Source: an uncultured Pseudomonadota bacterium
GTDB lineage: Bacteria; Babelota; Babeliae; Babelales; RVW-14
Length of the DNA: 64,000 bases
Direction: 5' to 3'
Assembly: GCA_964446935.1 (NCBI GenBank)
Contig: CAYUQI010000002.1
Span: 194-64,193, forward strand
Positions 3,681 to 47,600 of this stretch are shown here, piece by piece (positions within the stretch are counted from its first letter, which is position 1; each line of letters begins with the position of its first letter). The notes under the pieces were generated by a model. That model did no database searches, was not told the DNA's origin, and worked only from the letters and a program-made list of their open reading frames with translations. A program made the position numbers and the translations under genes.

Positions 3681-6329
3681 TTACTCTTTCTTTCTCCCTA
3701 TTTGAATGACGGAAATGAAATCTTTTTTGCAAAGACGCTTTGCTATTTCATTAACATCACTAATACTTATTATAGACAATAATTCTCCCTGTTTGTCAAA
3801 TAAATTAAAACTAAGCCCAAGTTTTTTAAGAAAAAGAAATGTTTGAGCAATTTGGGCATTGCTTTCAAAGAGTTCCACTGAAGCAGCAAAGAGCGAGTTT
3901 TTTGCTAAATCCAATTCTTCTTGGCTGATGCCAAAGTGTCCGACATCATCAATGGTTTCCAGGATAAGTTGCTTTGCTTGTTCTGCCTTGTCATTGGTAA
4001 CTATGGTCTTAATAAATGCCATGCCAGGTTCTTCACGTGAGCCATACACGAGTGATCCACCTATGGTATAAAACAGCCCACTTTTTTCTCTAAGCTGAAA
4101 AAGTCGTGATGATGGTGTTGTTTGAACACCACCGGTGACAATGGTGTCAAGCAAGGCAAGCGCGTTATATTCAGGGCTTTTGCGTGAAATTGATGGCGCA
4201 ACAAAACCTAAAACAACTTGGTCTCGGTCAAGCGCGAGTGACATCTGTCCGGGGGTGTATGGTTGTAGTGGTGGATAGGTTAGATCTTGAACGGTTGGGC
4301 CTTCCCATGAAGAAAAATATTTGGTGGTTAAGGCTTGAAGATCGATATCCGTTAGGTCCCCAACAACGATGAGATTTGCCTGATATGGTGAGATAAACTG
4401 CTTATATGCGTTTTCTAAATCTTTTTTCTTAATTAATTTAATACTCTCTTTAGTTCCGAGTGGATTTTTATGGTACGGATGTTTTTGATAAATGTATTCT
4501 TTGGCAATTTGATCAAGGAAGTCAATTGGTGAATCCCAGAGTTCATCAAGTTCACTTAGAATTTGATGTTGTGCTTTTTGAATGGAATGTTTATCAAAAG
4601 ATGGTTTTTTAATAATGGTTGCAAGAACCTTGAGCGATTTTTCAAAGTCATTATTCATACAACGGAAGGCAATGTTATCGGTGCCGGCTCCCAAATAGAT
4701 TCCTTGCGATTCAAGGAGCTTGGCAAATTCATCAGAATCATGTTCCTGGGTTCGGTCGGTAATGGTTCGGAGCAAGAATCCAAAAAGTCCCAGGTGCTTT
4801 TCTGGCTCATATAAATAATTAGCTTTAAAAGTTAATACGCTAATGATTTGAGGGACCGTTGGATTGTTATGGTAAATAACTTCAAGGCCGTTTGGAAGCG
4901 TAAACGTTTGTGGTTTAGGGAATGAAAAATTACTCAAAGGGGGTTGGTTAATGCGGAGAGCCCATTGAGGTTGTTGCACCGGCTCGGTACGTTGATGTTG
5001 TTGAAGAAGATTGTTTTCGAATGATTCTGTTTCAAGATGTAAGGATATAAGCTTTTTAAGATCTTGTGCCGATGCTGGTAATAAATAACCTTTATGCAAG
5101 ACCGTAGGGCTAAAATGTTCTCCGAAAAATTCTTGAAGCTGCTTTTTCGTTGTTTGTGCAATCGCGTCTAAATAATTTTCAATGAACGATTCATTGTGTG
5201 TTGCTAAATATGAATTACCAATGACAAACGCTTGTTTCTCGGTGCTTTCAAGTAATGATGAAAAATCAACCTGTGTTCGTTTTTTGGCGGCATCAAATTC
5301 CCATGTAAGTACTTGTTTTTTTGCTAAATGTTCAAATTCTTCAATAAGAATTTCTTCAATAATACCTGGGTTAGTGTTGTTAGCTGGCCATATGCCTAAC
5401 GTGAGTAACCCTTTTTCGAACAGGTCATAGACGGAACAGTCGATGTCAGAGGCAACCTTTTCTTTATTAACCAATCGCTGGTAGAGGCGAGAACTTTTTC
5501 CGACCGATAGAATAAGGCTTGCAATGTCTACCAAATGATTTTGCTGTTTTTGTAGCCCTGGAACTTTGTAGGTGTAACAGAACCAAGGGTTGCTTGTCAG
5601 ACGGTAGAGCATTGTTGTTCGAGCAACAAGATCATCCTGAAAGCAGAGGCGTCGTTTCGTGTAGTTGGTAGGTGATGGAATAGGGCCAAAATATTGTTCT
5701 GCAGTCTTGAAGACGTCGTCTGGGTTTACGTCCCCAACAACAACGAGTACCGCATTGGCCGGATGGTAATGTCGTTTGTAAAAAGCATAGAGGGCATCAC
5801 GAGACAGGCTTGCTAAATCATGAGCTGTACCAATAATGGGATTGCGGTAAGGATGTTCAGGAAATAATCCTGCTATTACCTGTTCAAATAATGCTCCTTG
5901 ATAATTTTCTCGATACAGGCGTATCTCTTCGATTACTGTTTTCAGTTCGGATGACAACATTTGAGGATTAAATGTTGCGTTTTGCATACACTCGGCAAGA
6001 AGTTCAAGTGCAACCTGCCATACATGGGATGGAAATCGAAACGTATAACAGGTATAATCTTGAGACGTAAAAGCGTTTGCATCGGCTGTTAGTTTTTGAC
6101 TAATGACATTGATATCGCTCTCAGAAAGATTTTTAGTTCCCTTAAAAAGCATGTGCTCAATCAGATGCGCCATGCCGCGTTCGTGATGTTCTTCATCTTT
6201 TGAGCCAACGTTATACCAAAGATGTGTTTCGATTCGTGGAACATGGTGAACTGGTTTGGTAAGAATGGTCAGTCCATTAGCGAGGACTTTTTTGTGAACT
6301 TTAAATGATGAGGAAGATACTGAAGACAT
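3681..6329 (-). CDS. M16-family zinc peptidase (double pitrilysin/insulinase-like unit)
   Basis: HxxEH motif (MAHLIEHMLFKGT). The 882-aa length fits two M16 active/inactive domain pairs. Confidence 0.85.
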   Translation of the reverse strand: MSSVSSSSFKVHKKVLANGLTILTKPVHHVPRIETHLWYNVGSKDEEHHERGMAHLIEHMLFKGTKNLSESDINVISQKLTADANAFTSQDYTCYTFRFPSHVWQVALELLAECMQNATFNPQMLSSELKTVIEEIRLYRENYQGALFEQVIAGLFPEHPYRNPIIGTAHDLASLSRDALYAFYKRHYHPANAVLVVVGDVNPDDVFKTAEQYFGPIPSPTNYTKRRLCFQDDLVARTTMLYRLTSNPWFCYTYKVPGLQKQQNHLVDIASLILSVGKSSRLYQRLVNKEKVASDIDCSVYDLFEKGLLTLGIWPANNTNPGIIEEILIEEFEHLAKKQVLTWEFDAAKKRTQVDFSSLLESTEKQAFVIGNSYLATHNESFIENYLDAIAQTTKKQLQEFFGEHFSPTVLHKGYLLPASAQDLKKLISLHLETESFENNLLQQHQRTEPVQQPQWALRINQPPLSNFSFPKPQTFTLPNGLEVIYHNNPTVPQIISVLTFKANYLYEPEKHLGLFGFLLRTITDRTQEHDSDEFAKLLESQGIYLGAGTDNIAFRCMNNDFEKSLKVLATIIKKPSFDKHSIQKAQHQILSELDELWDSPIDFLDQIAKEYIYQKHPYHKNPLGTKESIKLIKKKDLENAYKQFISPYQANLIVVGDLTDIDLQALTTKYFSSWEGPTVQDLTYPPLQPYTPGQMSLALDRDQVVLGFVAPSISRKSPEYNALALLDTIVTGGVQTTPSSRLFQLREKSGLFYTIGGSLVYGSREEPGMAFIKTIVTNDKAEQAKQLILETIDDVGHFGISQEELDLAKNSLFAASVELFESNAQIAQTFLFLKKLGLSFNLFDKQGELLSIISISDVNEIAKRLCKKDFISVIQIGRKKE

Positions 6330-14674: not shown

Positions 14675-15604
14675 TTAATGCTGTTTTTTTTTATTAAAAT
14701 TTTTTTTTTGCCAGCGGCTTAATAAATTTTCAATTTTTGTAAAACTTCTGTGATGGGCGAGTTCTTCTGGTGTTAACTCGATAAACATTCTACTCGTTGG
14801 ATCGGCTTTATATTCTAAAAGTATTTTAACTATTTTATATTCATTACTCATGACGGCAGCATGCAGTGGGGTGCCTTTACTTTCAGAGCTCCATGTAAGT
14901 ATAGTTGGAAATTTTTGACAATAATCATCCAAAAATGTTTTAAGGGTCTCTGAGTTTGGTTCTGAAAGTATTTCCCATAATGTCGTTCTCGCTTGCAACA
15001 TATCCTGAATCGTTGGATTCTTGGCAACTTGGTATGGTGTTAGCCCTTCATCGTTTATAATTGTAGGATCATTGCCATATTGTAAAAGAACGTTAACAAT
15101 TTCAGGATCGCCAATTTTTGCTGCAATGTGAAGAGGGGTTTGATTATTGGTGATTGGATTGTTAATGAGGTGTGGATGAAGTATAAGAAGATTTTGTATT
15201 TCATTAATATTTTTATGGTCTAGGGCATCGAGTAATGCATGTTCTGGCGTGTGCATAACCACATCGTCGTTGTTATGATGATCATTATCGTGAGAGTTAT
15301 CTGATATAGGAGAAACATCAAGTTCATCGGATGATGCTGATAATGATGGAAATTCGGATGAAGAGGATAGGGGTGGTGTTGATGATGGTGTTACGTTGGC
15401 CATCGCAATATCTTGTGGATTTGGATCAGTGTCTTCTTCTTGAGCAAATTGAGCAGAAGACAAGAGTTGTTTTGAGTGCGATGATTCTGTGTGTATTTCT
15501 ACTGTTGCGCCTTCTGATTGTGCCACCCTGGGTTCCGCGGCATATACAGAAGAGAGTGTTAAAGAGGTGAGAAAAGTTTGGATACCGATAGTGATTTTCT
15601 TCAT
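14675..15604 (-). CDS. exported ankyrin-repeat protein
   Basis: ANK motifs TPLHIAAKIGDPEIVNVLLQYGNDP and TPLHAAVMSNEYKIVKILLEYKADP. Signal-like MKKITIGIQTFLTSLTLSSVYA (internal ATG of track ORF 14675-15664). Confidence 0.8.
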   Translation of the reverse strand: MKKITIGIQTFLTSLTLSSVYAAEPRVAQSEGATVEIHTESSHSKQLLSSAQFAQEEDTDPNPQDIAMANVTPSSTPPLSSSSEFPSLSASSDELDVSPISDNSHDNDHHNNDDVVMHTPEHALLDALDHKNINEIQNLLILHPHLINNPITNNQTPLHIAAKIGDPEIVNVLLQYGNDPTIINDEGLTPYQVAKNPTIQDMLQARTTLWEILSEPNSETLKTFLDDYCQKFPTILTWSSESKGTPLHAAVMSNEYKIVKILLEYKADPTSRMFIELTPEELAHHRSFTKIENLLSRWQKKNFNKKKQH

Positions 15605-15848
15605 AGTAACCCCAGATACTCTGTTTATATTCTCTTTAGGTAGTATATCACCTAATCTGCCCAAACCATAATGAGGTGTATAACGGTTTAAAAGTCACTA
15701 TTTTGCATGAAGTTCTCCGAAATCGTTTCTATGTAACAAAAAATTCGTCCGAGCTTTAAATGTTTCGATTGTGATGATACAATGGCGCTCCCAATAAAAA
15801 TTTATCATAAAAAATTGATGTGGATTAAATAACTAAGGATTCTTCTCG

Positions 15849-16676
15849 ATGAGGGAGTTTAAGACCGTATTGGTGATACTGCTTTTGTTTGCTGTAATGA
15901 AAAGCTACTGTGCACAAAAACTATGCAATCAAGGTGGACCATTAACGGTAGGATCATCAGCAGAGGCTTTTAATAGTAAAGAGGCAATAGCCTTTTACCA
16001 GGAACTATGCAAAAACCTGTTTGATATCGAACAGGTTCGGAAATTGGTTAAGGGAGGGATTGAAAACAAATTTCTTAATATTGATCTTATTAAAAATCTG
16101 TTCGCATTGGCAGTATCGAAACGATGTAACTGTTTGGGGTTGAATGACGAGCAAAAGAAAATATTAAAAAATCTTGCCAGAAAAATTGTTGGCATGCTTC
16201 CCATTAGTTACTATGAAAAAGAACAAGATGTTACATATTTTGATTTATTGCTTGAAGGCCCTTTTTACACCTTCAATGAGGTGTTATCTACAAAGAGCCT
16301 GGTTATTGCAAATGATTCAGATGCTCGTCTGGATAGTCCGCTATCATGGCTTGGAGCTTGTAGTCTTTATGGGCTAATGTGTTTTTATAAAAAAAATAAG
16401 GCCCTTGCTCAAAAAATGTTTAACTTTGTTCTTGATTATGAAAATTGTCGATATTTTAACATGCTAGCATGGTTCGATGCACATTTTTACTTAATGAAAA
16501 TGTGTTTGTTCTGTAATCCTAATGATAAGGATGCTATTCAAGTACATTGTAAGGCCATTCTTGATGCTCCCAATGCTGAAATGTTCTATAAACATGGCTT
16601 TACTGAAGCTAAATATATTCTTGAGATGAGTCAAAAAAAAAAGAGTCCAACGCCTTCTTTCTCCATTTTTGATTAA
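15849..16676 (+). CDS. hypothetical exported protein
   Basis: Long ORF with a signal-like N-terminus MREFKTVLVILLLFAVMKSYCA. No motif recognised. Confidence 0.5.
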   Translation: MREFKTVLVILLLFAVMKSYCAQKLCNQGGPLTVGSSAEAFNSKEAIAFYQELCKNLFDIEQVRKLVKGGIENKFLNIDLIKNLFALAVSKRCNCLGLNDEQKKILKNLARKIVGMLPISYYEKEQDVTYFDLLLEGPFYTFNEVLSTKSLVIANDSDARLDSPLSWLGACSLYGLMCFYKKNKALAQKMFNFVLDYENCRYFNMLAWFDAHFYLMKMCLFCNPNDKDAIQVHCKAILDAPNAEMFYKHGFTEAKYILEMSQKKKSPTPSFSIFD

Positions 16677-16680
16677 TGGT

Positions 16681-16711
16681 TTGAAAAGACATAATTCGTT
16701 CGAAGTATAAT
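16681..16711 (+). promoter_or_regulatory. candidate sigma70-type promoter TTGAAA-N19-TATAAT facing the tandem RNA-like units
   Basis: Hexamers read directly from the sequence. The spacer is long (19 nt). No experimental support. Confidence 0.3.
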
Positions 16712-16718
16712 GAAAAAT

Positions 16719-16785
16719 AAAAAAAGCCCGTCGGCAATGGCATCTTGCAACAGTAGTTGCAGCGTGCAATTATCGAAGGGCTTTT
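16719..16785. terminator. long bidirectional terminator-like hairpin
   Basis: A7 - GCCCGUCGG...(inner UGCAAC-agua-GUUGCA)...CGAAGGGC - T4. Read on the minus strand it ends in U7. Confidence 0.6.
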
Positions 16786-16788
16786 AAA

Positions 16789-16991
16789 GCCAGGCAAGCT
16801 ATATCAGGCTACCAAGATCCGCAACCATCAATCCGATGAACACTTATCAAAAGCATCAATCAGCGACGTTATGCTCTGATCGGTTGCCTCGGTGAGGGTT
16901 AATCACCGTATATAGCATCTGAGGGGCTGACTATGTGCATCCAAGCAAGGATGCAATAGTTGGAGCGACAGGTACTCCTAGCTTGTCCGGC
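16789..16991. ncRNA. structured-RNA-like unit A (unclassified; strand unresolved)
   Basis: 5' GCCAGGCAAGCT and 3' AGCTTGTCCGGC are complementary. Internal hairpins and boxes are shared with unit B. No ORF. Confidence 0.45.
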
Positions 16992-17000
16992 CATTTTTAA

Positions 17001-17218
17001 GCCGGGCAGGCTACACATGGGTTACCGAAAGAACGAACACCAATAGATGATTACTTAATTAAAAGTATCAAACAACGATGTTAGCATTAAATCGGTTAGC
17101 CACAATATAGCATCTGAGGGCTGTATATACACATCCGAAGATGCGTATAACAGGAGCGACAGGTGTTGGGAAGGCAAAACCCACTGAAGGGAACTGCATT
17201 TCCCATAGCTTGTCCGGC
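17001..17218. ncRNA. structured-RNA-like unit B (unclassified; strand unresolved)
   Basis: 5' GCCGGGCAGGCT pairs with 3' AGCTTGTCCGGC (10 WC + 2 G-U on the + strand). Shares ATATAGCATCTGAGGGCTG and GGAGCGACAGGT with unit A. Confidence 0.45.
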
Positions 17219-17249
17219 TATTTTCTCATACATTTCAATCTCTAAATTC

Positions 17250-17279
17250 ATTGTAAATTATTTGATGATAGAAAATCAA
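17250..17279 (-). promoter_or_regulatory. candidate minus-strand promoter TTGATT-N18-TACAAT upstream of unit B
   Basis: Hexamers read on the reverse complement. Alternative to the + strand promoter. Speculative. Confidence 0.25.
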
Positions 17280-17349
17280 TGGTTGATGAAAATATATTGT
17301 TGAAATCGATATATTTGATTAAAAATGGCAGATTTAAATTTAAAAAATG

Positions 17350-18075
17350 CTAAAATTTACTGATTTTTGAAGAGATTAAAAACATGAGAATTCCTGCCGC
17401 AACGGAGGCATTGTAGGAAATATCGGCTGTTCGTTGAGGAAGGGTAAGAGCCTCTCCCATCTTACGGATATCAGGAGAGATCCCAACCGCTTCGTTACCA
17501 ATGACCAAGCATAAGGGTTTTTGGTAAGATGCTTCGGCGGCGTTCTTTCCATCCAAAACAGCCATATAAAAGTGATATCCAGCTTGTTTGAGTTCTGCAA
17601 TTGCTTGTTTAAGTGATGAGGCAACATAGATATCCATATGTTCAGCTAATCCGGCAGAGGCTTTGAATGCTGCTGCGGTGAGAGGTGCAGCTTTGGTTTT
17701 GCAGAGTACAACTCCGTCAACCCCGGTGCAATAGGCGGAGCGTAAGATGGCGCCAAGGTTGCGGACGTCTTGTAGTGAATCAAGTATCACAATGAATGGT
17801 TTTTTGTTTGGATCGAACACTTTAGAGGTGTATTTGAACGAAGTTGCTAGGGCGACGATACTGTTATGATCGGTGCAGCCAGCCATGCGGTCGAGTACTG
17901 AGCGATCAACATATTGAATCGTTGGCTTTTGAGCAGGAAGGTAACGAACAATGCGGTCCCATGCTTTAGGCAAGGGCCTTGTTGTATAAATGGTAAGAAT
18001 TTTGCGCTTCTTTGCCTTAAGAAGTTCGATAATGGGATGTGCTCCGTAAATCATTTCGCCTGCTGGTGCAGCCAT
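17350..18075 (-). CDS. SpoU/TrmH-family RNA 2'-O-methyltransferase (RlmB-like)
   Basis: GAHPIIELLKAKKRKI N-terminal substrate-binding-like region. C-terminal SpoU motifs NLGAILRSA, LVIGNEAVGIS, SYNASVAAGI. Confidence 0.85.
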   Translation of the reverse strand: MAAPAGEMIYGAHPIIELLKAKKRKILTIYTTRPLPKAWDRIVRYLPAQKPTIQYVDRSVLDRMAGCTDHNSIVALATSFKYTSKVFDPNKKPFIVILDSLQDVRNLGAILRSAYCTGVDGVVLCKTKAAPLTAAAFKASAGLAEHMDIYVASSLKQAIAELKQAGYHFYMAVLDGKNAAEASYQKPLCLVIGNEAVGISPDIRKMGEALTLPQRTADISYNASVAAGILMFLISSKISKF

Positions 18076-18113: not shown

Positions 18114-18194
18114 TTGTCATGCTGAACTTGTTTCAGCATCCATTTTACTAAGGTTAAGGTTAGCGTGGATCCTGAAATGAATTCAGGATGACAA
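18114..18194. repeat. 81-bp palindromic repeat element (REP/MITE-like), copy 1
   Basis: Terminal inverted repeats TTGTCATGCTGAA / TTCAGGATGACAA. Two internal hairpins: ATGCTGAA-cttgt-TTCAGCAT and ATCCTGAA-atga-(A)TTCAGGAT. A second copy lies at 22632-22772. Confidence 0.7.
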
Positions 18195-19916: not shown

Positions 19917-22583
19917 GTGATGATGAATAGTAACCGAGCATATGTTTTTATTGCATGTGTTATTTTTTTATTATGCGTAAGCAATTCCATTCATGCTCGT
20001 GATGTTGGGCAACGGTTTATTCTAACGTTGCCGGAACATGTTGCGCATAAACAACTTTGTTCGTGGCTCAGTAAAACTCGTCCAGCTGGCGTTATGTTGC
20101 AATCAAGTCATGTAGCCAATCGCATGGAGGCAAAAAAACTTATTACCTTTCTTCAAAAGGAAACAAAAAAGCTTGGATTGTTACCGCTGATCATAGCCAT
20201 TGATTGGGAAGGAGGCATTGTATCTCGTCCCAATGAAGAGGGGGACTTTGTTTCTGTGCCAAGTCCATGGTCATTGGCCAAAGGTGAGCGGAATGCCTGC
20301 TTTCTGGCTGGCATGCTTCTTGGTCATCAGATGCATAGTGTTGGTATAACCATGGATTTTGCACCATCGCTTGATGTGTTTGACCCTAACAATTGTGTGC
20401 TTGCTACTCGTTGCTTTTCTCATGATCCTGTAAAGATTGCTGAATATGCTACAGCATATGCTAAAGGATTGATGGTTTATGGTATTGTTCCAGTAATCAA
20501 ACATTTTCCTGGGCTTGGGGCAGGTAGGGCAGATACGCATTTTGCTAGCGTAGCAATCGCACAGCATGATAATGATTTTGAACGAAACATTCAACCGTTT
20601 AAGACATTGTTGCAAGATGGTATGCAATGTGTGATGACGACTCATGCGCGACATGCACAGTACGATGATGTGCCTGCCTCGTTGTCACGTCGTGCAGTCA
20701 ATGATATCAAAATACATAATCCCAATGCAGTGATTATTACCGATGATTTTTGCATGAAGGCTGTACAAGAGGGACGAACGCTTGAGCAAGCGGCTATGCA
20801 GGCGTGGGATGCTGGAGCACATATTATTATTTTTTCTGGAACAGCCAAACGTCAAATCGAATTGATTGAATCATTACAAAAAACCTATGATGCGTGGCCG
20901 AGTGATAAAAAACAGGATTTTGAACAGATGTGTAACCACATTGATTCATGTAAACATCAATGGATGTCGGCACCAGTTCAAATAATGCCTGAATTGAATG
21001 AATGTGAACTCGCTACCTATCTTGCACATCGATGTGTTACCGTTGATCACCCAATGCCTTTGCTTATCGGCAGACGTGTTGTGGTGGCATCGGTTGATCT
21101 ACCGCGTATTCGTCCGATGGAACAATGGTTTATGCACGATGCCCATACCCATTTGGCACAATTATTGGCGCAACAAGGTGTTGATGTTAGTGAATATGTG
21201 TACAATCCTCTTGATGAAACAAGCGTAGAGAAATTGAAAAACGACGTAGAAACTGATGAGTATGATTATATTGTTGTACAAACATTCTTTTACGGTGCTG
21301 GGAAATGGAATGATGTACAAAAAACTTGGTTACAAGTTCTGGAGCCGTTCCGGGACCGTGTGATTAGCGTGTCATTGGGACACCCATTAGAAAAACTTCT
21401 GTTACCGAGGGCTTATTGTATTGATGCTGGGTCATTTCATAAACCGTTACTCAAGCATGTGGAAGATTTGTTAACGAGGCAAACTGTTGTTGGTGCTAAT
21501 ACATTTGTACAAGGCCCGGGACGTTACCTGAACAACAAACGTTTCGGATTGTTGTGTAACAATGGGAGTGTTGTCTACAAAGATCAAGCAAGATGCTTTT
21601 TGCCTGATGTGTTATATCAGTGGACTGTTGATAGCAAGTGTGGTGCGAAACTTGCTGCGCTTCTAAGTCCGGAACATGGCTTGTTAGGTAACAGTTCTGC
21701 TGCAACACTCGTCTCATCTCAATCTTCATCCGTTTGGCATTGTCCTGTGCATTCGCTGCATGGCGATACCTTTAAGCCAAGCAGTGATATGATGCGTAAT
21801 CTTGATCTGGTGGTTATTGATCTTCCTGATGTTGGGGTCAGATGTTTTACCTATTTGAGCACCGTTGCGTATATGTTGCAAGCAGCCAAAACTGCAAACA
21901 TCCCTGTTCTTGTGCTTGATCGCCCTAATCCGTTGGCATGTTGGGGCGCTCAGGGACCTCGTCTTGATAAAAGTTGTGAATCATTTTTGGGTACGGTACA
22001 TACACCATTTTTGCATGGGTTAACGATCGGGACAATTGCGGAACAGGAAAATAAAAACATTGGCGCCGACCTTACAGTACTTTCATGTACGGGCGATGAT
22101 GCATTGTTTTTTAACCAACCGTTTATTCCTCCATCACCTAATTTACGAAGCATTGATCATGTGTATGCATATCCGTTGACGGTGTTGTTGGAGGGAACAA
22201 ATTATTCGGAGGGTCGCGGTACATTGTATCCCTTTGTGCAATTCGGGGCACCATGGGTTGATGCAGAGCAGTTGGCCACTCAGCTGAATAGCAAAAAACT
22301 ACCTGGTTTGTATTGTGAACCAATAACATTTCAGCCACGTTCGATGCCAAGAATTGCCGAAAATCCTAAACATAAGGGTAACCGCTGTCAGGGTGTGTTT
22401 ATTCATATTACAGATCATCAGAATGTTCAGCCGATCAAAACGGCAAAGACGATATTAAAAACGTTATTCCACTTGTATCCAGAACAATCACAGTTGTTAC
22501 GTAGTGGTAAGCGGTATATGTTGGATATCTTGATTGGAACGGAAAAGTGGAGAAAAGAGCTTGAACGACTAACTCTTAAGTGA
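19917..22583 (+). CDS. fusion of GH3 beta-N-acetylhexosaminidase (NagZ-like) and a DUF1343 (NamZ-like) domain
   Basis: N-terminal half: IAIDWEGGIVSR, KHFPGLGAGRADTHF (GH3 motifs). C-terminal half: FGLLCNNGSV..LLSPEHGLLGN..DLPDVGVRCFTY..LDRPNP (DUF1343 pattern). Signal-like N-terminus. Confidence 0.75.
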   Translation: MMMNSNRAYVFIACVIFLLCVSNSIHARDVGQRFILTLPEHVAHKQLCSWLSKTRPAGVMLQSSHVANRMEAKKLITFLQKETKKLGLLPLIIAIDWEGGIVSRPNEEGDFVSVPSPWSLAKGERNACFLAGMLLGHQMHSVGITMDFAPSLDVFDPNNCVLATRCFSHDPVKIAEYATAYAKGLMVYGIVPVIKHFPGLGAGRADTHFASVAIAQHDNDFERNIQPFKTLLQDGMQCVMTTHARHAQYDDVPASLSRRAVNDIKIHNPNAVIITDDFCMKAVQEGRTLEQAAMQAWDAGAHIIIFSGTAKRQIELIESLQKTYDAWPSDKKQDFEQMCNHIDSCKHQWMSAPVQIMPELNECELATYLAHRCVTVDHPMPLLIGRRVVVASVDLPRIRPMEQWFMHDAHTHLAQLLAQQGVDVSEYVYNPLDETSVEKLKNDVETDEYDYIVVQTFFYGAGKWNDVQKTWLQVLEPFRDRVISVSLGHPLEKLLLPRAYCIDAGSFHKPLLKHVEDLLTRQTVVGANTFVQGPGRYLNNKRFGLLCNNGSVVYKDQARCFLPDVLYQWTVDSKCGAKLAALLSPEHGLLGNSSAATLVSSQSSSVWHCPVHSLHGDTFKPSSDMMRNLDLVVIDLPDVGVRCFTYLSTVAYMLQAAKTANIPVLVLDRPNPLACWGAQGPRLDKSCESFLGTVHTPFLHGLTIGTIAEQENKNIGADLTVLSCTGDDALFFNQPFIPPSPNLRSIDHVYAYPLTVLLEGTNYSEGRGTLYPFVQFGAPWVDAEQLATQLNSKKLPGLYCEPITFQPRSMPRIAENPKHKGNRCQGVFIHITDHQNVQPIKTAKTILKTLFHLYPEQSQLLRSGKRYMLDILIGTEKWRKELERLTLK

Positions 22584-29149: not shown

Positions 29150-29523
29150 TGGTGGAGGCGATGGGAGTCGAACCCATGTCCGCAGTAAACAAAGTACTCA
29201 GTCCTACATGTTTATTCCTTGTTTATACTCCTACACAAAAGCAAGGAATCCTGCGTGTAAGAGCCGATTGAGTGTACGCTGTTGGTTACACATTCGGAAA
29301 AGTCTTGCCAACAGGTTCTATCTGAATAATACGAGTATTACCAACTGATAGACACGCCAGTAATACAAGAGCTACTCAGTTACTAATTAAGCAACGTATG
29401 CAGCTTGTGAATGACCAAAGTCATCACTTATTTGATTTGAAGGATTCTTTAACGAGTTTCTTCCTCCAAAACTCGACATGCGCTCAGTACATCGTCTATT
29501 ACGTCGAGACCAATTACGCCCCC
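29150..29523 (-). ncRNA. ssrA: tmRNA (SsrA)
   Basis: 5' GGGGGCGUAAUUGGUCUCGACG and 3' ..GGGUUCGACUCCCAUCGCCUCCACCA form a tRNA-Ala-like acceptor stem with a G3-U70 pair. The internal tag frame ends ..CAA GCU GCA UAC GUU GCU UAA (..QAAYVA*). Confidence 0.9.
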
Positions 29524-29618
29524 GGATTTTTCAAAGATCTTTACAAATTCTTTGCTCAGTATAGGATAAAATTGCTGAATGTCAATTTATCCCTATTTGT
29601 AAGGATTTTCTGTAGGTT

Positions 29619-39736: not shown

Positions 39737-42400
39737 TTAAGCAGATACAGCTTCAAGCGGCTCTTTTTCTCGCTGTGCTATGCCAATAGGTCCTTGGACT
39801 GGCGCATAATGCGCAGCTTGTTTTTGCTTTTCTGCTTCTCGTTTGAGCCGTGCTTTTTCAATGGCTTCAGAGACCTTAAAATAAGGGTCTTCTTGTAGGT
39901 TGGCCGACTTTGGTCGGTTTCTGCCATACGTGTAGTCATCTATTGGTCTTAAAACACCTTGAGCAGCATCTGATAATTTTTGCTTAATTGTCTGATGTGA
40001 TGGTCGGAAAAACCATCGTTGTATTGGATCTCGGTCATGAATGTACATATCATTTTTCATAATCTGATATTTAGCATAATCAAGTTTAAGTTGGGTATAT
40101 TCATCAGGAGCGCCCTCAAAGCGTGGTTTGATAATACTTGGGCGAATGAATACGTAGAGGTTTTCCTCTGTTTTCGATTTTGCTTTAGTTTTAAACAAGT
40201 TTCCCAGAATTGGAATATCGCCAAGAATTGGAGTTTTATAAACATCATCAGTTAGTTTACTTTTGGTTAATCCACCAAGGACCAAAACTTCACCAGCGCC
40301 CAAACATGCTTTTGTAACCAGTTTTCTTGTTGATTTGGAAGCGGTATCCGAAGGGTTTACTTGTTGAAATTCATCGACCGATATATCGGTTGACAGGTCA
40401 ATGGTACCCGTCAAGTTGATAGTAGGTGTAAGATCAATTTTAATTTCAGCATCCAAATCTTCTTTTTGAACGACTGGCTGGATGTTTTTGGTATCTACTT
40501 TGCCGCTGACTCTAAATGTTGTTTTGACCGAAACCGTACATTTTTGATTGTTGTTGGCGATAACATATGGTTGTGAAATAACTTGAGAATTTTTGATATT
40601 TAACGTTGCCTTGATGATTGACCAGATGTTTTGATTCGTTCGTGGATCTGCGCGTCCTAAGGTAAAGTAACTCCCGTGTTCGTTACCAATAAGCTGATTA
40701 GCGGGATCTAAAAAATCAATGTATGGGTTTGAAAATGGATTTTTGCTTTCTTCAGTGCCACTTTTAGCTATCCCTGATGTTAGATTTTGGAATTCAACAT
40801 TGACATTATGAGCGAGCGGATTGCCTTTGACGTTAAACATCTGTACCCCGAGTGAACGATCATTTTGCATATTCACATCAACAATCATGACCTCGATAGC
40901 TACTTGTGGTTGTGGTTTGTCAAGTTTATCAATAAAGGTCTCAAGCCGTTTCCAGTCTTCTCGGTTACAAGCAATAATAAGACGATTACCGCCGCCGCGT
41001 TTGGCTGTTTCGGATCCAGCTGTATCATCTTGTTCTGCGCTGATAACAACATCTTCAAAAACCTTGTAACCACCTTCCATGACCAATGCCTTTTCTGTTG
41101 TTCCTTTTGGTGGTTTGATGATATCAACAAGAATAGGTTGAATATCTTGTGCACGAACATAACGCAGCTCCTTGACATGGAGGCGGGAATCAGCACTTTC
41201 GATAGGGACATCAAGATATTTGTAGATAAAGCCTTTGATTTTTTCGATATTCTTTTTAGTGCCTAGGAGAATAAGTGAGTTTTGTGTTGGTTCAGCAAGG
41301 ATTTTTGTCGCTGAAGAAAAATAAGAAGCTTCTTTTGATTGAAACGATGAGAAACGAATAATCTTTTCGTCTTTTTCTCCAACAATATCGGTAAACAGTT
41401 TTTGAATATCATCAGCATTAGCCCATGTGAGTGAAATTACCTCAATAGCTTCACGAAGCCCGCCATCGTCGAGTTCTTTGACGATTTTCATGGCTGCTTT
41501 GATGTTTAAACATTGATCTTTGATGATACAGACGTTCAAATCCTTGTTATCAACAATATTTTTTTCATCAATCATTTTGCTTAAAATACTATGTGCGGCG
41601 TCAACCTTTATATTCTTTAAAAAATAGACGTATCGGACAACAAGATCGCTATCGGGAAGATTTTCTGGCTCTGTTCCGGTTCCTGATGAGTACACAGGAA
41701 GTGGTTCTTGTCCGTTGTTTTGGCTTGGAACAACGCGGTGCAGTGCCCCGACTTTAACAATGGTGAACCCATTCATTTCAAGAAGGGTAAGCATTACGTT
41801 CCATGCTCGTTCGAGAGTTAGCGGGTTACGCGTTGTCAATGAAACCTTAGCCGTCTCGAGGTCTTTATGAGGAATAATATTAAACTTTTTTTGCTCTGAG
41901 AGGTAATTAAGCACACTTCCAAGTGAAGCATTATCAAAATTGAGATAAATATTTGCATCATCCTGTGTTTCTTGTGGCACTAAATCGCCGACGTTAATCG
42001 TTGTTGAAGGCATAACTCCATTTTGTGGCGGAAGTGCCGGTTGCGGGGTTGCTGGTTGTTGTTGCTCTGGTTTGCTTGGCGTGACAGGAGTTGTTGTCGA
42101 TGATTCAGTTGGCGTTGCTGGTTGCAGTGGTGTAGAAAATTCAGGCATTGAGGCTATTGCGGATTCGGCTGGTGGCATTGCAGCAGAAGGCGGCACAGCA
42201 GTGGGTGCTGTTGCGACTGTTTCTGCAGCAGGGGTAGCCGTTGTTAGCTGAGGGGCTGGGGTAGCTGTGACTGATGGCACCGGGGCTGAAGTGGTAGGCA
42301 TAAGTGGCATGAGTGCCATGGTGGTGTTTATCCACCATGGCGCAAACAGAAAACATAAGAGCATTATAAGTGATCTACTATATTTCATAGCCGTTATCAT
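39737..42400 (-). CDS. secretin, GspD-like (copy 2)
   Basis: N0-like IYLNFDNASLGSVLNYLSEQKKFNIIP..LEMNGFTIV. Secretin core VLVLGGLTKSK..YKTPILGDIPILGNLFK. Signal peptide and a Pro/Thr/Ala-rich spacer. Confidence 0.85.
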   Translation of the reverse strand: MITAMKYSRSLIMLLCFLFAPWWINTTMALMPLMPTTSAPVPSVTATPAPQLTTATPAAETVATAPTAVPPSAAMPPAESAIASMPEFSTPLQPATPTESSTTTPVTPSKPEQQQPATPQPALPPQNGVMPSTTINVGDLVPQETQDDANIYLNFDNASLGSVLNYLSEQKKFNIIPHKDLETAKVSLTTRNPLTLERAWNVMLTLLEMNGFTIVKVGALHRVVPSQNNGQEPLPVYSSGTGTEPENLPDSDLVVRYVYFLKNIKVDAAHSILSKMIDEKNIVDNKDLNVCIIKDQCLNIKAAMKIVKELDDGGLREAIEVISLTWANADDIQKLFTDIVGEKDEKIIRFSSFQSKEASYFSSATKILAEPTQNSLILLGTKKNIEKIKGFIYKYLDVPIESADSRLHVKELRYVRAQDIQPILVDIIKPPKGTTEKALVMEGGYKVFEDVVISAEQDDTAGSETAKRGGGNRLIIACNREDWKRLETFIDKLDKPQPQVAIEVMIVDVNMQNDRSLGVQMFNVKGNPLAHNVNVEFQNLTSGIAKSGTEESKNPFSNPYIDFLDPANQLIGNEHGSYFTLGRADPRTNQNIWSIIKATLNIKNSQVISQPYVIANNNQKCTVSVKTTFRVSGKVDTKNIQPVVQKEDLDAEIKIDLTPTINLTGTIDLSTDISVDEFQQVNPSDTASKSTRKLVTKACLGAGEVLVLGGLTKSKLTDDVYKTPILGDIPILGNLFKTKAKSKTEENLYVFIRPSIIKPRFEGAPDEYTQLKLDYAKYQIMKNDMYIHDRDPIQRWFFRPSHQTIKQKLSDAAQGVLRPIDDYTYGRNRPKSANLQEDPYFKVSEAIEKARLKREAEKQKQAAHYAPVQGPIGIAQREKEPLEAVSA

Positions 42401-44665: not shown

Positions 44666-47600
44666 GCAATAGCCTTTTGGTCTATTTGCTTTTTAAGAGT
44701 ATTTTGAGCAAGCGCACGATGTGCTGTTAAAAAGTCATTTAATCCATTTCGCTGCTGTGTATCAGTTATGAGTCGTATTTCAGGTGCCTTGGATCGTGCT
44801 GCAAGTGTACCAGAGGGTGGGGCTATGAGGTTCTTGAGCGATTCGCGCTGTTGAGGATCCACCGTTATTGGCATCGGCGTTGGCGTAGGTTCTGTGTCTT
44901 TTGGTGATGTCGAAGAACGAGAAAGTAACTCTTTAAGTTTATTTCGTTTTGCTATAAGCGAGTCATCTGGCGTTGGTATTGGTTCAATTGGTTGAGGCGT
45001 ACGCAATGAAACGGCAGGTGGAGTGGTGACTTGCGGTGACGCAGGAGTCGTTTTTTGTATTTGATTGTGCGCAACCACTGAAGGCTTTTCTTTCTCGATT
45101 GATTGAGGTGGGGTTAGATTATTCGCCTCTTGTTGAATTATTGGTTTTGGTTCACTGATAAGCGCCCTGTAATAAGGATCATTTTTAATATCGACGGTTG
45201 TTGGTTGATAGCGAGCATTGGCAAAGTCAATAACTTTATGAGAGTAATTTTCTTTATCTGGGTTAAAGAACCAATTATGAATAGGATCTTGGGTTCGCTT
45301 TGTTTCAACAGTGTTTTCAATATCTTCGGTGGCTTGGTGAAGTTTCATCTTTGTATATAATTGCATGCCGGGTATTTGTCGTGGTTTAAGGATTGTTGGG
45401 GAGAGGAAAATAAAGAGGTATTCTTTAATAATTGTACGTTGTTGATCTTTAAAAAACCAACCAAGAATGGGGATGTCTCCAAGGACTGGCGTTTTGTTTT
45501 TGGATTCATCTACTTTGGTTTTTATAAAACCGCCTAAGACGAGAACTTGGCTATCTGCTACACTAACGTTGGTTTCAAGTACACGGGTTGATTTTTTAGT
45601 TGCTTCATCATTTTCAAATTCTGTTATTTCTACTCTAATTTTTAATCGTATAACACCATCAAGATTTATTTGAGGTGTAAGTTCAACTTTGGTTGATGCT
45701 TCAGCATTAATGTAACCTTTTGCCCCTGTAGTTCCTGAAACTTCTTCCGAAACTATACGCTTGGTTGAACCAACGTTGATATTGGCTGTGGTTTTGTTGG
45801 CAACCGTAATAAATGGTTGAGAAAGAATGGAAGCGTTTGTTTGAGTTTTAAGCATTTTGAAAACGCTCCAAATATTATTCTCTTTACCAAACGATAAACA
45901 TGTTTGACCTTGTGTTGGGACGAGTTGGTTAATTAAATTACCAAGCAAGCTGACATTTTGTGCCTGATCATTTTTTTTAAGGGTAGGACCATCGGTAAGT
46001 GAAGCAGATTGAAAATCAACATGGGTTCCCAATTGCCCTTCTTTTTTATTGCGAAGCATTCCGCCAAGTTCTTTAACATCGTCAGAGCTTATGGTTACCA
46101 GTAAACTTTCAATGGCAACTTGAGGTTGTGGTTTGTCAAGGTCTTGAATTGTTTTTTCCAGCAATGTCCAGTCCTGTTTATCAAGACATGAAACAATTAA
46201 TCGATTGCCATCTTTATCAACCTGAAAGTTCATATTTTTAAAGTATTTTACACCGCCACGGATAGAACCAAATTTGCCAGCGGCTTGTCCTGTTGTTGAT
46301 TCTGGTGCTATGGTAACTTCCTTCAAGATATCTCGAACTTGCGTAGCATCGATGTGTTGTAATTCGTAGATGTGTAGAGGGGATTCGGCTTCTTTAAGGT
46401 CAGTATCAATATGTTTGCTGATGAAATCGACGATCTTATCAATTGATTTGTTATTGCCAAGTAAAATAAGCGAATTGGTACGTTCTTCTGGTACAATTTT
46501 GGTGGTTGGGGAAAAATATTCGGTTCCGCCTTCAGCTGTTTTTCCTAAAAGTCGCGCAAGCGGATTTGTTTGATCTGGTTTTTTAATTAACGCATCAAGA
46601 AGCGTTTTTACATCGGTTGCATTAGCACGTTTAAGCCTTAAAACGGTGACGCTTTCAGGCAATCCCATCTGGTCAAGTTCGTGAATGAGTTTAACAGCCG
46701 CTTTAATGTTATAAGACTTATCAGTGATAATGAAAGCATTCATGTCTTTTTGCTCGTGTACCACGTTAGGCTGGCTGAGCATGCTTTCGAGTACTGGTTT
46801 GATATCAGTTACCGAAATATTGGAAAGAAACGTGACATAACGAATGGTTAAATCACTATCTGGCAACGATTCATATGGAACGTTAATGTAGGCAGGGAGA
46901 GGTTGATTAAGCTTTTTATCCTTAGGAATGATCTTATGAACATCACCGACTTTAACAATGCTAAAGCCTGACATTTCAAGAACGGTGAGAAAGATATTCC
47001 ATGCTCCTTCAACCGTGAGTGGCTCGCGTATGGTGAGGGATATCTTTGAACCTTCAAGCCCTTTGTCTGGGACAAAATTGATTTTTTTAATCTCAGCAAT
47101 GTAATCGATAAAACTCGAAAGTTCGGTATTTTCAAAATTAAGATAAATATCTTTTTTTTCTTCTGCAGGGGTTGGTGTTGTAACCCCTGGTGTTGGTTTT
47201 GTTTCTGTTGCAGCAGGTTGCGGGGTTGTTTGTTCAGATGGTGCGCCTGCTGTTTGCTGTTCAGTGAGCTGGGACTGGGTTTCTGCGGCTACTGGGGTGG
47301 TAGATTCTTGTGGTGTGGTAGGTGCTTCTGGTGCTGGCGCAGGAATTGATGCCTCGTCAATAGTTGGAGTAGGGATAGGTGCTTGCGTAGGTGTGGGAGA
47401 CGTTGCTGGTACTGATGGTTGTATGACAGGTGCTATTGAGGGGGTAGGCGAAACAGCTGAAATCGATGATGCCGATAGTGCAGCAGGTTGTTGCGGGGTT
47501 ACGGGCATTGTTGGTATTGCCGGTGTTGTTGCTAGTGCCAATGGCATTGTTGGCATTACGGGCGTCGTCTCTGTTGCTAATGGCATTGTGGGTATAGCAG

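Follow-up and report, generated by a model that had tools for sequence, protein, structure and literature searches.

Tandem aptamer leaders such as the tandem glycine riboswitch consist of consecutive modules, each closed by a P1 helix, followed by an intrinsic terminator, and 6S RNA (ssrS, co-transcribed with ygfA in E. coli) is an RNA of about 200 nucleotides (nt) with an end-closing helix and a sigma-70 promoter. PrrF1/PrrF2 and OmrA/OmrB are adjacent paralogous noncoding RNAs (ncRNAs) with conserved blocks and divergent interiors, and the bacterial Y RNAs YrlA/YrlB are structured paralogs encoded side by side, with ends that pair into a long stem. Complementary ends, a modular build and strong structure when transcribed are found in BOX, Correia and other repeats that resemble miniature inverted-repeat transposable elements (MITEs). 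Here we describe a locus in a 64-kb stretch of DNA (contig CAYUQI010000002.1; the whole stretch is called the window below) in which a gene-free gap holds two tandem structured units, A and B. On balance, we favor reading this gap as one lineage-restricted noncoding transcription unit of ~530 nt on the minus strand, composed of two modules and equipped with its own promoter and terminator. The RNA probably belongs to no catalogued family and would be a lineage-restricted structured bacterial ncRNA, possibly derived from a leader. Homologs of the neighboring RlmB place the host in Dependentiae (TM6, Babeliales), a phylum of uncultivated obligate intracellular bacteria of protists.

The gap lies between two convergent open reading frames (ORFs), 15849-16676 (+) and rlmB at 17350-18075 (-). 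Identity between unit A (16789-16991) and unit B (17001-17218) is 74% and blockwise; the two are paralogs, and we take them to stem from a tandem duplication. Both units start with GCC(A/G)GGCA(A/G)GCT and end with AGCTTGTCCGGC, and their terminal 12-13 nt are complementary (the closing helix is called P1 below). The complementary 12-mers and the base pairs that a preliminary description of this DNA had counted for them on the plus strand were found exactly so in our pair table: column 6 is G-U in every copy, and the units differ at column 9 (A-U in A, G-U in B) and at column 4 (A.C in A, G-C in B). Two boxes reported as common to both units, ATATAGCATCTGAGG(G)GCTG and GGAGCGACAGGT, each occur exactly twice in the 64 kb (expected numbers of occurrences: 0.03 and 0.10, respectively). 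A further claim concerned a hairpin that still pairs in both units; the difference between the two stems had been overstated, as the aligned stems both have UAU..CAUC/GAUG..AUA, with a single truly covarying position (U-A vs C-G). The modules have a G+C content of 45-50%, whereas the spacer next to them has 20% and the window as a whole 39%, and the folds of the two units stand out against dinucleotide shuffles on both strands (z of -3.2 and -6.4 on the plus strand, -4.8 and -5.7 on the minus strand). Five independent metagenome contigs carry the locus without a single base difference, and thus it is no assembly artefact.

A close relative of the host is represented by L010, a contig from a biogas-plant DNA metagenome that carries both units and encodes an RlmB 97% identical to that of the window. 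Comparison with L010 supports the earlier statement that the gap has no credible ORF (only ORFs of 20-51 amino acids are found). All ATG-started minus-strand ORFs over the units lose their start codons in L010 (ATGs at 17018, 17199 and 17251), one of these three ORFs gains a stop, and box 1 contains a 1-nt indel that puts A and B in different frames, all of which indicates that the interval is not coding. A six-frame pseudo-protein search for spurious ORFs called over homologous RNAs returned nothing, and a protein-coding small ORF was rejected on these grounds.

The substitutions between L010 and the window are unevenly distributed within the units. In unit A we count 12 substitutions and a loop insertion of 4 nt, and in unit B nine substitutions, next to 10 differences among 131 positions of the A+T-rich spacer and 50 among 726 positions of rlmB (42 of the 242 third codon positions). 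Those in the units are concentrated in hairpin loops (16824-34 and 17193-98) and in one stem, in which the changes at 16935-37 are matched at 16955-56, including a U-A to C-G exchange. Stretches of 7 nt or more in which A and B agree fully show no substitution at 90 positions, as compared to 21 at the 331 positions elsewhere (Fisher p=0.011), and 2.5% of the columns identical between A and B differ in L010, as compared to 8.2% of the remainder. These figures argue that the core conserved between the paralogs (P1, both boxes and AUCGGUU) is under purifying selection; unit sequence outside this core evolves at about the rate of the spacer.

A promoter scan of the minus strand predicts a sigma-70-type promoter at 17279-17250, with the -35 hexamer TTGATT (17274-17279) and the -10 hexamer TACAAT (17250-17255) separated by an 18-nt spacer. 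The A+T-rich stretch after rlmB aligns across four lineages, namely the window's own locus (WIN) and the contigs L008, L023 and L024 of relatives, with the hexamers in register: the -35 hexamer is TTGATT in WIN, L008 and L024 and TTGCTT in L023, in the same alignment column, and the -10 hexamer follows TANNNT (TATCTT, TATAGT and TAAATT in the relatives). Out of 2000 shuffles, none reaches the alignment score of the promoter regions of WIN and L008, 12 reach that of WIN and L023, and 24 reach that of WIN and L024; the promoter regions of L024 and L008 share 79% identity over 66 nt (E=6e-11). L010 has the same two hexamers, despite the spacer differences given above. At the other end, the terminator-like hairpin that had been seen next to the units is real (16722-16785, -28.3 kcal/mol, z -5.1). 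It starts 3 nt past module A in the minus direction. Beyond the hairpin, the minus strand continues with U7AU5 and the plus strand with only four U; with minus-strand transcription the hairpin would lie downstream of the units and end the transcript. We infer transcription and its start site from these signals.

The preliminary description had called the strand evidence conflicting, and within the two units the conflict is real, as counts of G-U pairs favor the plus strand and the C(UUCG)G loop of module B favors the minus strand. Folds compared in both orientations beat shuffles on either strand, with lower and better conserved minimum free energies (MFEs) on the minus strand, namely -75 to -77 kcal/mol in all four copies (A and B in the window and in L010), as compared to -65 to -75 kcal/mol on the plus strand. 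The changes of L010 in unit B cost 10 kcal/mol on the plus strand and none on the minus strand. By thermodynamics alone the z-scores are mixed, and the lower minus-strand MFEs are partly expected from U-rich composition. The canonical terminator, the conserved promoter and the elements of relatives in the sense of rlmB (L023 and L024, see below) resolve the conflict toward the minus strand, against the plus strand that the G-U counts had suggested, and point to the minus strand, with the same sense as rlmB, as the strand of the RNA.

For the relatives, twelve rlmB look-ups were made. Five of them concerned this organism or L010 (the window RlmB, P0001 and P0121) or came without DNA (P0002 and P0003), and the contig of P0004 has only 16 nt downstream of rlmB. 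P0002 and P0003, RlmB homologs with 81% and 78% identity on two contigs of JGI sample 3300075153, have ~430-610 nt free of genes behind rlmB, which may contain copies of intermediate divergence. A structured element follows rlmB in L008, L023 and L024, and the P1-closed elements in this slot range from 77 to ~470 nt. L023 has one element of ~245 nt, then a terminator and a convergent gene, as in the window. Its closing helix (CCAGGUGGGCU/AGCUUAUCUGG) contains three G-U pairs on the rlmB-sense strand, which are three C.A mismatches on the other strand, and the element folds at -93.4 kcal/mol (z -3.0) in the sense orientation, as compared to -85.1 kcal/mol (z -0.6) on the other strand. In L024, a structured gap of 574 nt (-161 kcal/mol sense vs -136 kcal/mol antisense) contains a 211-nt unit, the closing strands of which are AUCUGACAAGUUA/AAACUUGCCAGGC, as well as a mini-unit of ~93 nt, and two rhodanese genes come next. 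Across WIN-A, WIN-B, L023 and the first unit of L024 (L024-u1), 84.6% of the P1 cells are paired (at most 44% with slid partners), and P1 positions 4, 7 and 11 change on both sides among the four sequences. Some covariation, which the preliminary description had proposed to test in homologues, is present in the closing helix across these four sequences. Between lineages, no similarity was detected in the interiors of the elements, and P1 and the promoter alone are recognizably conserved.

We note two further observations in this slot. In L024, 1866-2335 (+) is a very stable, structured 470-nt leader of two tandem rhodanese genes (-161 kcal/mol, z -5.7), which includes two helix-closed units and three more hairpins. 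In L008, the conserved promoter is followed at 4895-5057 (+) by a 77-nt helix-closed unit and a hairpin with a U-tract, ahead of the ribosome-binding site and the rhodanese start codon. This order of unit, terminator and gene is the layout of a transcription-attenuation leader, and the L008 element may be an unrecognized cis-regulator of rhodanese.

No known family accounts for the units. Using Rfam 15, the whole window at gathering thresholds yielded tmRNA alone (29150-29523), the region 16650-17350 at E<=10 yielded a single chance match to snoR101 outside the units, and the related elements in L008, L023 and L024 gave no credible match; the covariance-model check of the gap that had been suggested thus matched no family. 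Neither the boxes nor the terminal repeats nor whole units recur elsewhere in the window. The box-pair pattern has four chance matches, all in coding DNA, in 185,579 GTDB species genomes (the host genome is not among the species representatives scanned), one contig of the same organism plus chance matches in the JGI metagenomes, and one chance match in IMG/VR; the P1 pattern has three chance matches in IMG/VR, and blastn against phage and plasmid collections found no match. RNAalifold on MAFFT alignments of either strand was uninformative, the alignment being structurally inconsistent, and we found no literature on Dependentiae-specific ncRNAs or rhodanese-associated RNA motifs. These results uphold the core of the preliminary description, namely tandem structured-RNA-like units of unknown family in a noncoding gap.

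Several motifs were tried and rejected by inspection. A kink-turn at the conserved internal loop does not fit, as 5'-AG-3' opposite 5'-GA-3' gives A.A and G.G, and the position that needs A is G or C and varies in L010. Loop E, the hammerhead core (CUGANGA...GAAA), SRP domain IV, RNase P P4, CsrA-binding GGA loops and integron attC were also dropped, as was a retron msr-msd (no reverse transcriptase is nearby). These rejections are consistent with the lack of an Rfam match wherever a model exists.

If the gap is transcribed as we favor, the sigma-70-type promoter would start an RNA of ~530 nt in the same sense as the upstream rlmB, beginning with a 25-nt leader, running through module B, a 9-nt spacer and module A, and ending with the intrinsic terminator. 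The start near 17243 is predicted from the position of the -10 hexamer, and the predicted leader (17219-17243, minus strand, as are all parts listed here) contains GAUUGAAAU, which is also found upstream of the L023 element. Module B (17001-17218; 218 nt) would be transcribed first, and its P1 pairs 17206-17218 with 17001-17013. It contains a B-only hairpin domain (domain I, 17167-17205), into the loop of which the L010 substitutions at 17193-17198 fall; the box ACCUGUCGCUCC (given in the sense orientation, as are the following boxes; 17153-17164), invariant between A and B and in L010; the apical hairpin of domain II with the C(UUCG)G tetraloop seen in the fold (17126-17149); the box CAGCCCUCAGAUGCUAUAU, an exact-pattern match (17105-17123); and, according to the helix list, a long, irregular rod hairpin (domain III, 17018-17104) closed by ACCGA/UCGGU. 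The spacer between the modules (16992-17000) reads UUAAAAAUG in the sense orientation and can be the loop of an alternative hairpin formed by the 3' strand of the P1 of B and the 5' strand of the P1 of A. Module A (16789-16991; 203 nt) would be transcribed second, with P1 pairing 16979-16991 with 16789-16801. It contains exact-pattern matches to the boxes ACCUGUCGCUCC (16962-16973) and CAGCCCCUCAGAUGCUAUAU (16910-16929), the apical hairpin of domain II (16930-16960; seen in the fold, with the matched L010 changes), an A-only small hairpin CGGUGA/UCACCG (16890-16908), with a similarly placed small hairpin in L023, and the rod hairpin (domain III, 16806-16889, from the helix list). A private hairpin in each unit had been described before, and both are present. 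The transcript would end at the intrinsic terminator (16785-16713), in which the imperfect hairpin is followed by the U-rich tract in the same arrangement as in L023; on the plus strand, the terminator may also end the gene at 15849-16676.

Each module is thus predicted to fold into P1, an irregular helix of ACCUGUCGCUCC and CAGCC(C)CUCAGAUGCUAUAU with an apical hairpin, a rod hairpin that adjoins the 3' strand of P1, and a private hairpin. The full predicted transcript folds at -189 kcal/mol (z -7.0), and in this fold the 5' strand of the P1 of B pairs with the 3' strand of the P1 of A, the two inner strands making a hairpin. Two independent P1 helices are thus one possible arrangement of the modules, and a single outer helix is the other. 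As judged from the full-length fold, the two units probably belong to one transcript as its modules and are not separate genes.

As to origin, the same promoter slot would drive P1-closed elements in the relatives, as a rhodanese 5' leader in L008 and L024 and as a terminated RNA in L023. The rhodanese leaders of the relatives and the layout in L008 suggest that the family probably arose as, or doubles as, a structured cis-acting leader, and in this genome the RNA would be released as a stand-alone molecule. With no gene following it in the window, the RNA would either act on its own or be a relic. Our best guess at a function is that the C-rich irregular helix ACCUGUCGCUCC...CAGCCCCUCAGAUGCUAUAU, together with P1, provides a platform to which a protein or another RNA binds. 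A wider proposal, which we offer only tentatively, is a Dependentiae-specific modular family of P1-closed RNAs, transcribed from the conserved promoter beside rlmB, that ranges from a new cis-regulatory leader of rhodanese (sulfur-transfer) genes to a trans-acting RNA, with modules that duplicate and diverge rapidly; if true, a transition from leader to small RNA would be caught in progress in an obligate intracellular bacterium.

A number of observations weigh against one conserved minus-strand RNA, and they have to be set beside the other explanations. On the strand, P1 has G-U pairs on the plus strand at column 6 (all copies) and column 9 (B), which turn into A.C mismatches when read on the minus strand; a U-G pair is found on the plus strand in the 5-bp helix AUCUG/CAGGU; and the modules contain more A than U on the plus strand. 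On the family, the boxes occur in no other genome or metagenome scanned, so that a family defined by the boxes is confined to one species-level lineage; the rlmB loci of L009, L017 and L025/L026 (contigs of relatives) carry no element; the covariation in P1 comes from four sequences and is statistically weak (29 of 500 shuffles reach the score); and the 3' ends have no significant similarity between lineages. Sequence profiles of the modules also miss the elements of L023, L024 and L008, and cross-lineage homology of the modules is thus read from synteny, the promoter and the similarity of P1; beyond promoter and P1 it is probable, not proven. The matched cluster of changes in the hairpin of A could reflect templated mutation of a quasi-palindrome instead of selection on RNA, and the sole traceable sample (SRR8925730) is a DNA metagenome. 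The strand observations would agree with two separate plus-strand small RNAs, each ending at P1 and then (C/U)AUUUU, for which the purine-rich internal loops on the plus strand, the U-run that follows each unit on that strand and a TTGAAA-19-TATAAT match at 16681-16711 also speak. But the hexamers of this plus-strand promoter match are 19 nt apart, with a strong hairpin downstream of them; unit B has no promoter in front of it, a helix of such long range is no canonical terminator, and plus-strand stability is not conserved in L010. Given these points and the minus-strand promoter, terminator and related elements of L023 and L024, we regard plus-strand RNAs as very improbable. A palindromic repeat acting at the DNA level (MITE- or BOX-like), with the closing helix as its terminal inverted repeats and a tandem insertion or duplication, would account for the 13-bp terminal inverted repeats, the modular interior of variable size, the tandem arrangement, the similar flanks (TTTTAA before and ATTTT after), and G-U and A.C mismatches on both strands as expected of a strand-neutral palindrome. 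Read directly, the left flank is TTTTAA(A) and the right flank (C/T)ATTTT, and no direct duplication that abuts the ends is evident. Dispersed copies with target-site duplications, which the preliminary description had named as the sign of a MITE, were not found in the window or the public collections: the two adjacent copies are the only ones in 64 kb, no further terminal-repeat copy in the window could mark a parent element, and no true match turned up in genome, metagenome, viral, phage or plasmid collections. The lack of dispersed copies within the window and these collections makes a MITE-like repeat unlikely, and the sharing of one syntenic slot behind a conserved promoter in four lineages indicates vertical descent, not transposition; we consider this explanation very improbable.

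A relic is harder to dismiss, and we rate it as unlikely. The gap would then be a passenger, either the orphaned leader of a lost rhodanese operon or a long structured rlmB 3' UTR (untranslated region), transcribed from the minus strand without a function of its own beyond stabilization or termination of the transcript. The homologous slot is a rhodanese leader in L008 and L024, and the window has no rhodanese gene; the module interiors evolve fast between lineages; and direct reading finds no terminator hairpin between the rlmB stop and the modules in the window, which makes read-through from rlmB plausible. (An intrinsic terminator of rlmB itself is found directly after its stop at L023:1500-1545 (+) and L008:4750-4800 (+), with none seen in the window or L024.) On the other hand, the modules stay at 45-50% G+C while neutral spacers are at ~20%, both duplicated copies keep the exact boxes and P1, with no substitution at the 90 core positions between strains, and the promoter hexamers are kept though no gene follows. 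A function is supported by the retention of the G+C content and of the promoter, by the duplication and by how strictly the boxes are conserved, and we favor the single functional minus-strand transcription unit over a passenger. The RNA is probably neither a MITE nor coding.

For a lineage-specific regulator, a structured RNA that stays at 45-50% G+C while its genome is A+T-rich makes a good candidate; it has a conserved promoter of its own and duplicated modules under purifying selection. One genomic slot that holds either a structured rhodanese 5' leader (in relatives) or a stand-alone terminated RNA is also a concrete, testable case. Since the box-defined family is found in one species-level lineage, its practical value is limited; the novelty of the RNA is modest and its distribution very narrow.

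Genes around the locus encode a ClpB-like ATPase, an ankyrin-repeat protein, a 275-aa protein, the RlmB/SpoU methyltransferase, a deoxynucleoside kinase and a GH3-NamZ fusion. The 275-aa protein (15849-16676 (+)) has a signal-peptide-like N-terminus and no Pfam or NCBIfam match, and among 5.8 billion proteins no homolog was found beyond itself (in this organism); it is thus a strain- or species-specific orphan gene, which led to no additional loci, and its product is possibly a secreted effector. The adjoining ankyrin-repeat protein (14675-15664 (-)) resembles the Legionella Dot/Icm Ank effectors. The 888-aa fusion (19917-22583 (+)) combines a glycoside hydrolase family 3 domain with an exo-beta-N-acetylmuramidase NamZ domain, which suggests recycling of peptidoglycan sugars in a reduced intracellular bacterium. 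The tmRNA gene at 29150-29523 (-) is one-piece (Rfam score of 134.7 bits) with the tag peptide DDFGHSQAAYVA; its near-consensus promoter, TTGACA-17-TATACT (~29554-29582), lies ~34 nt upstream, which indicates that the organism uses sigma-70-like promoters, and no obvious intrinsic terminator follows the gene. The sole other repeat found in the window is a 65-nt direct repeat (40893-40957 and 46109-46173; 72% identical, 5.2 kb apart), which probably reflects paralogous genes. Three Logan contigs of separate runs (L006, L007 and L010) have their first base 65-67 nt ahead of the rlmB start codon, near 18140, which may be a population variant or repeat boundary upstream of rlmB.

Compared with the known systems, the locus shares features with each and coincides with none. 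6S RNA is like it also in being sometimes co-transcribed upstream of a protein gene and in its poor sequence conservation across lineages. It is a rod with a central bubble, whereas the modules here are predicted to form a three- or four-way junction and are multi-branched on both strands (in MFE and centroid folds); moreover, the L008 version has only 77 nt, and two tandem copies in one transcript would be unusual. 6S RNA was rejected on the multi-branched fold and on the lack of a match to its model at E<=10. PrrF and Omr RNAs are 90-150 nt long, have a promoter and a terminator apiece, and work by means of short single-stranded seeds, unlike one promoter and one terminator for two highly structured modules of 200 nt; no target complementarity was found within the window. 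BOX and Correia repeats have tens to hundreds of dispersed copies, as compared to the single syntenic locus here. Unlike for a Y RNA, no Rfam match and, by eye, no tRNA-like T-loop was found, and the seven flanking ORFs (12.5-22.6 kb) have no match to the Ro/TROVE protein family in Pfam. A riboswitch was rejected, as the units have no Rfam riboswitch match, no position in the 5' UTR of a gene in the window and no conserved core. Tandem aptamer leaders differ from this locus in that no gene follows the element in the window or in L023, the transcript in the window ends facing a convergent gene, and the modules (77 to ~250 nt) have interiors unconserved across lineages, unlike a ligand-binding aptamer. 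What the locus has in common with such leaders is the order of tandem P1-closed modules and then an intrinsic terminator, and in L008 and L024 the slot lies directly upstream of rhodanese, with a hairpin and U-tract before the ribosome-binding site in L008.

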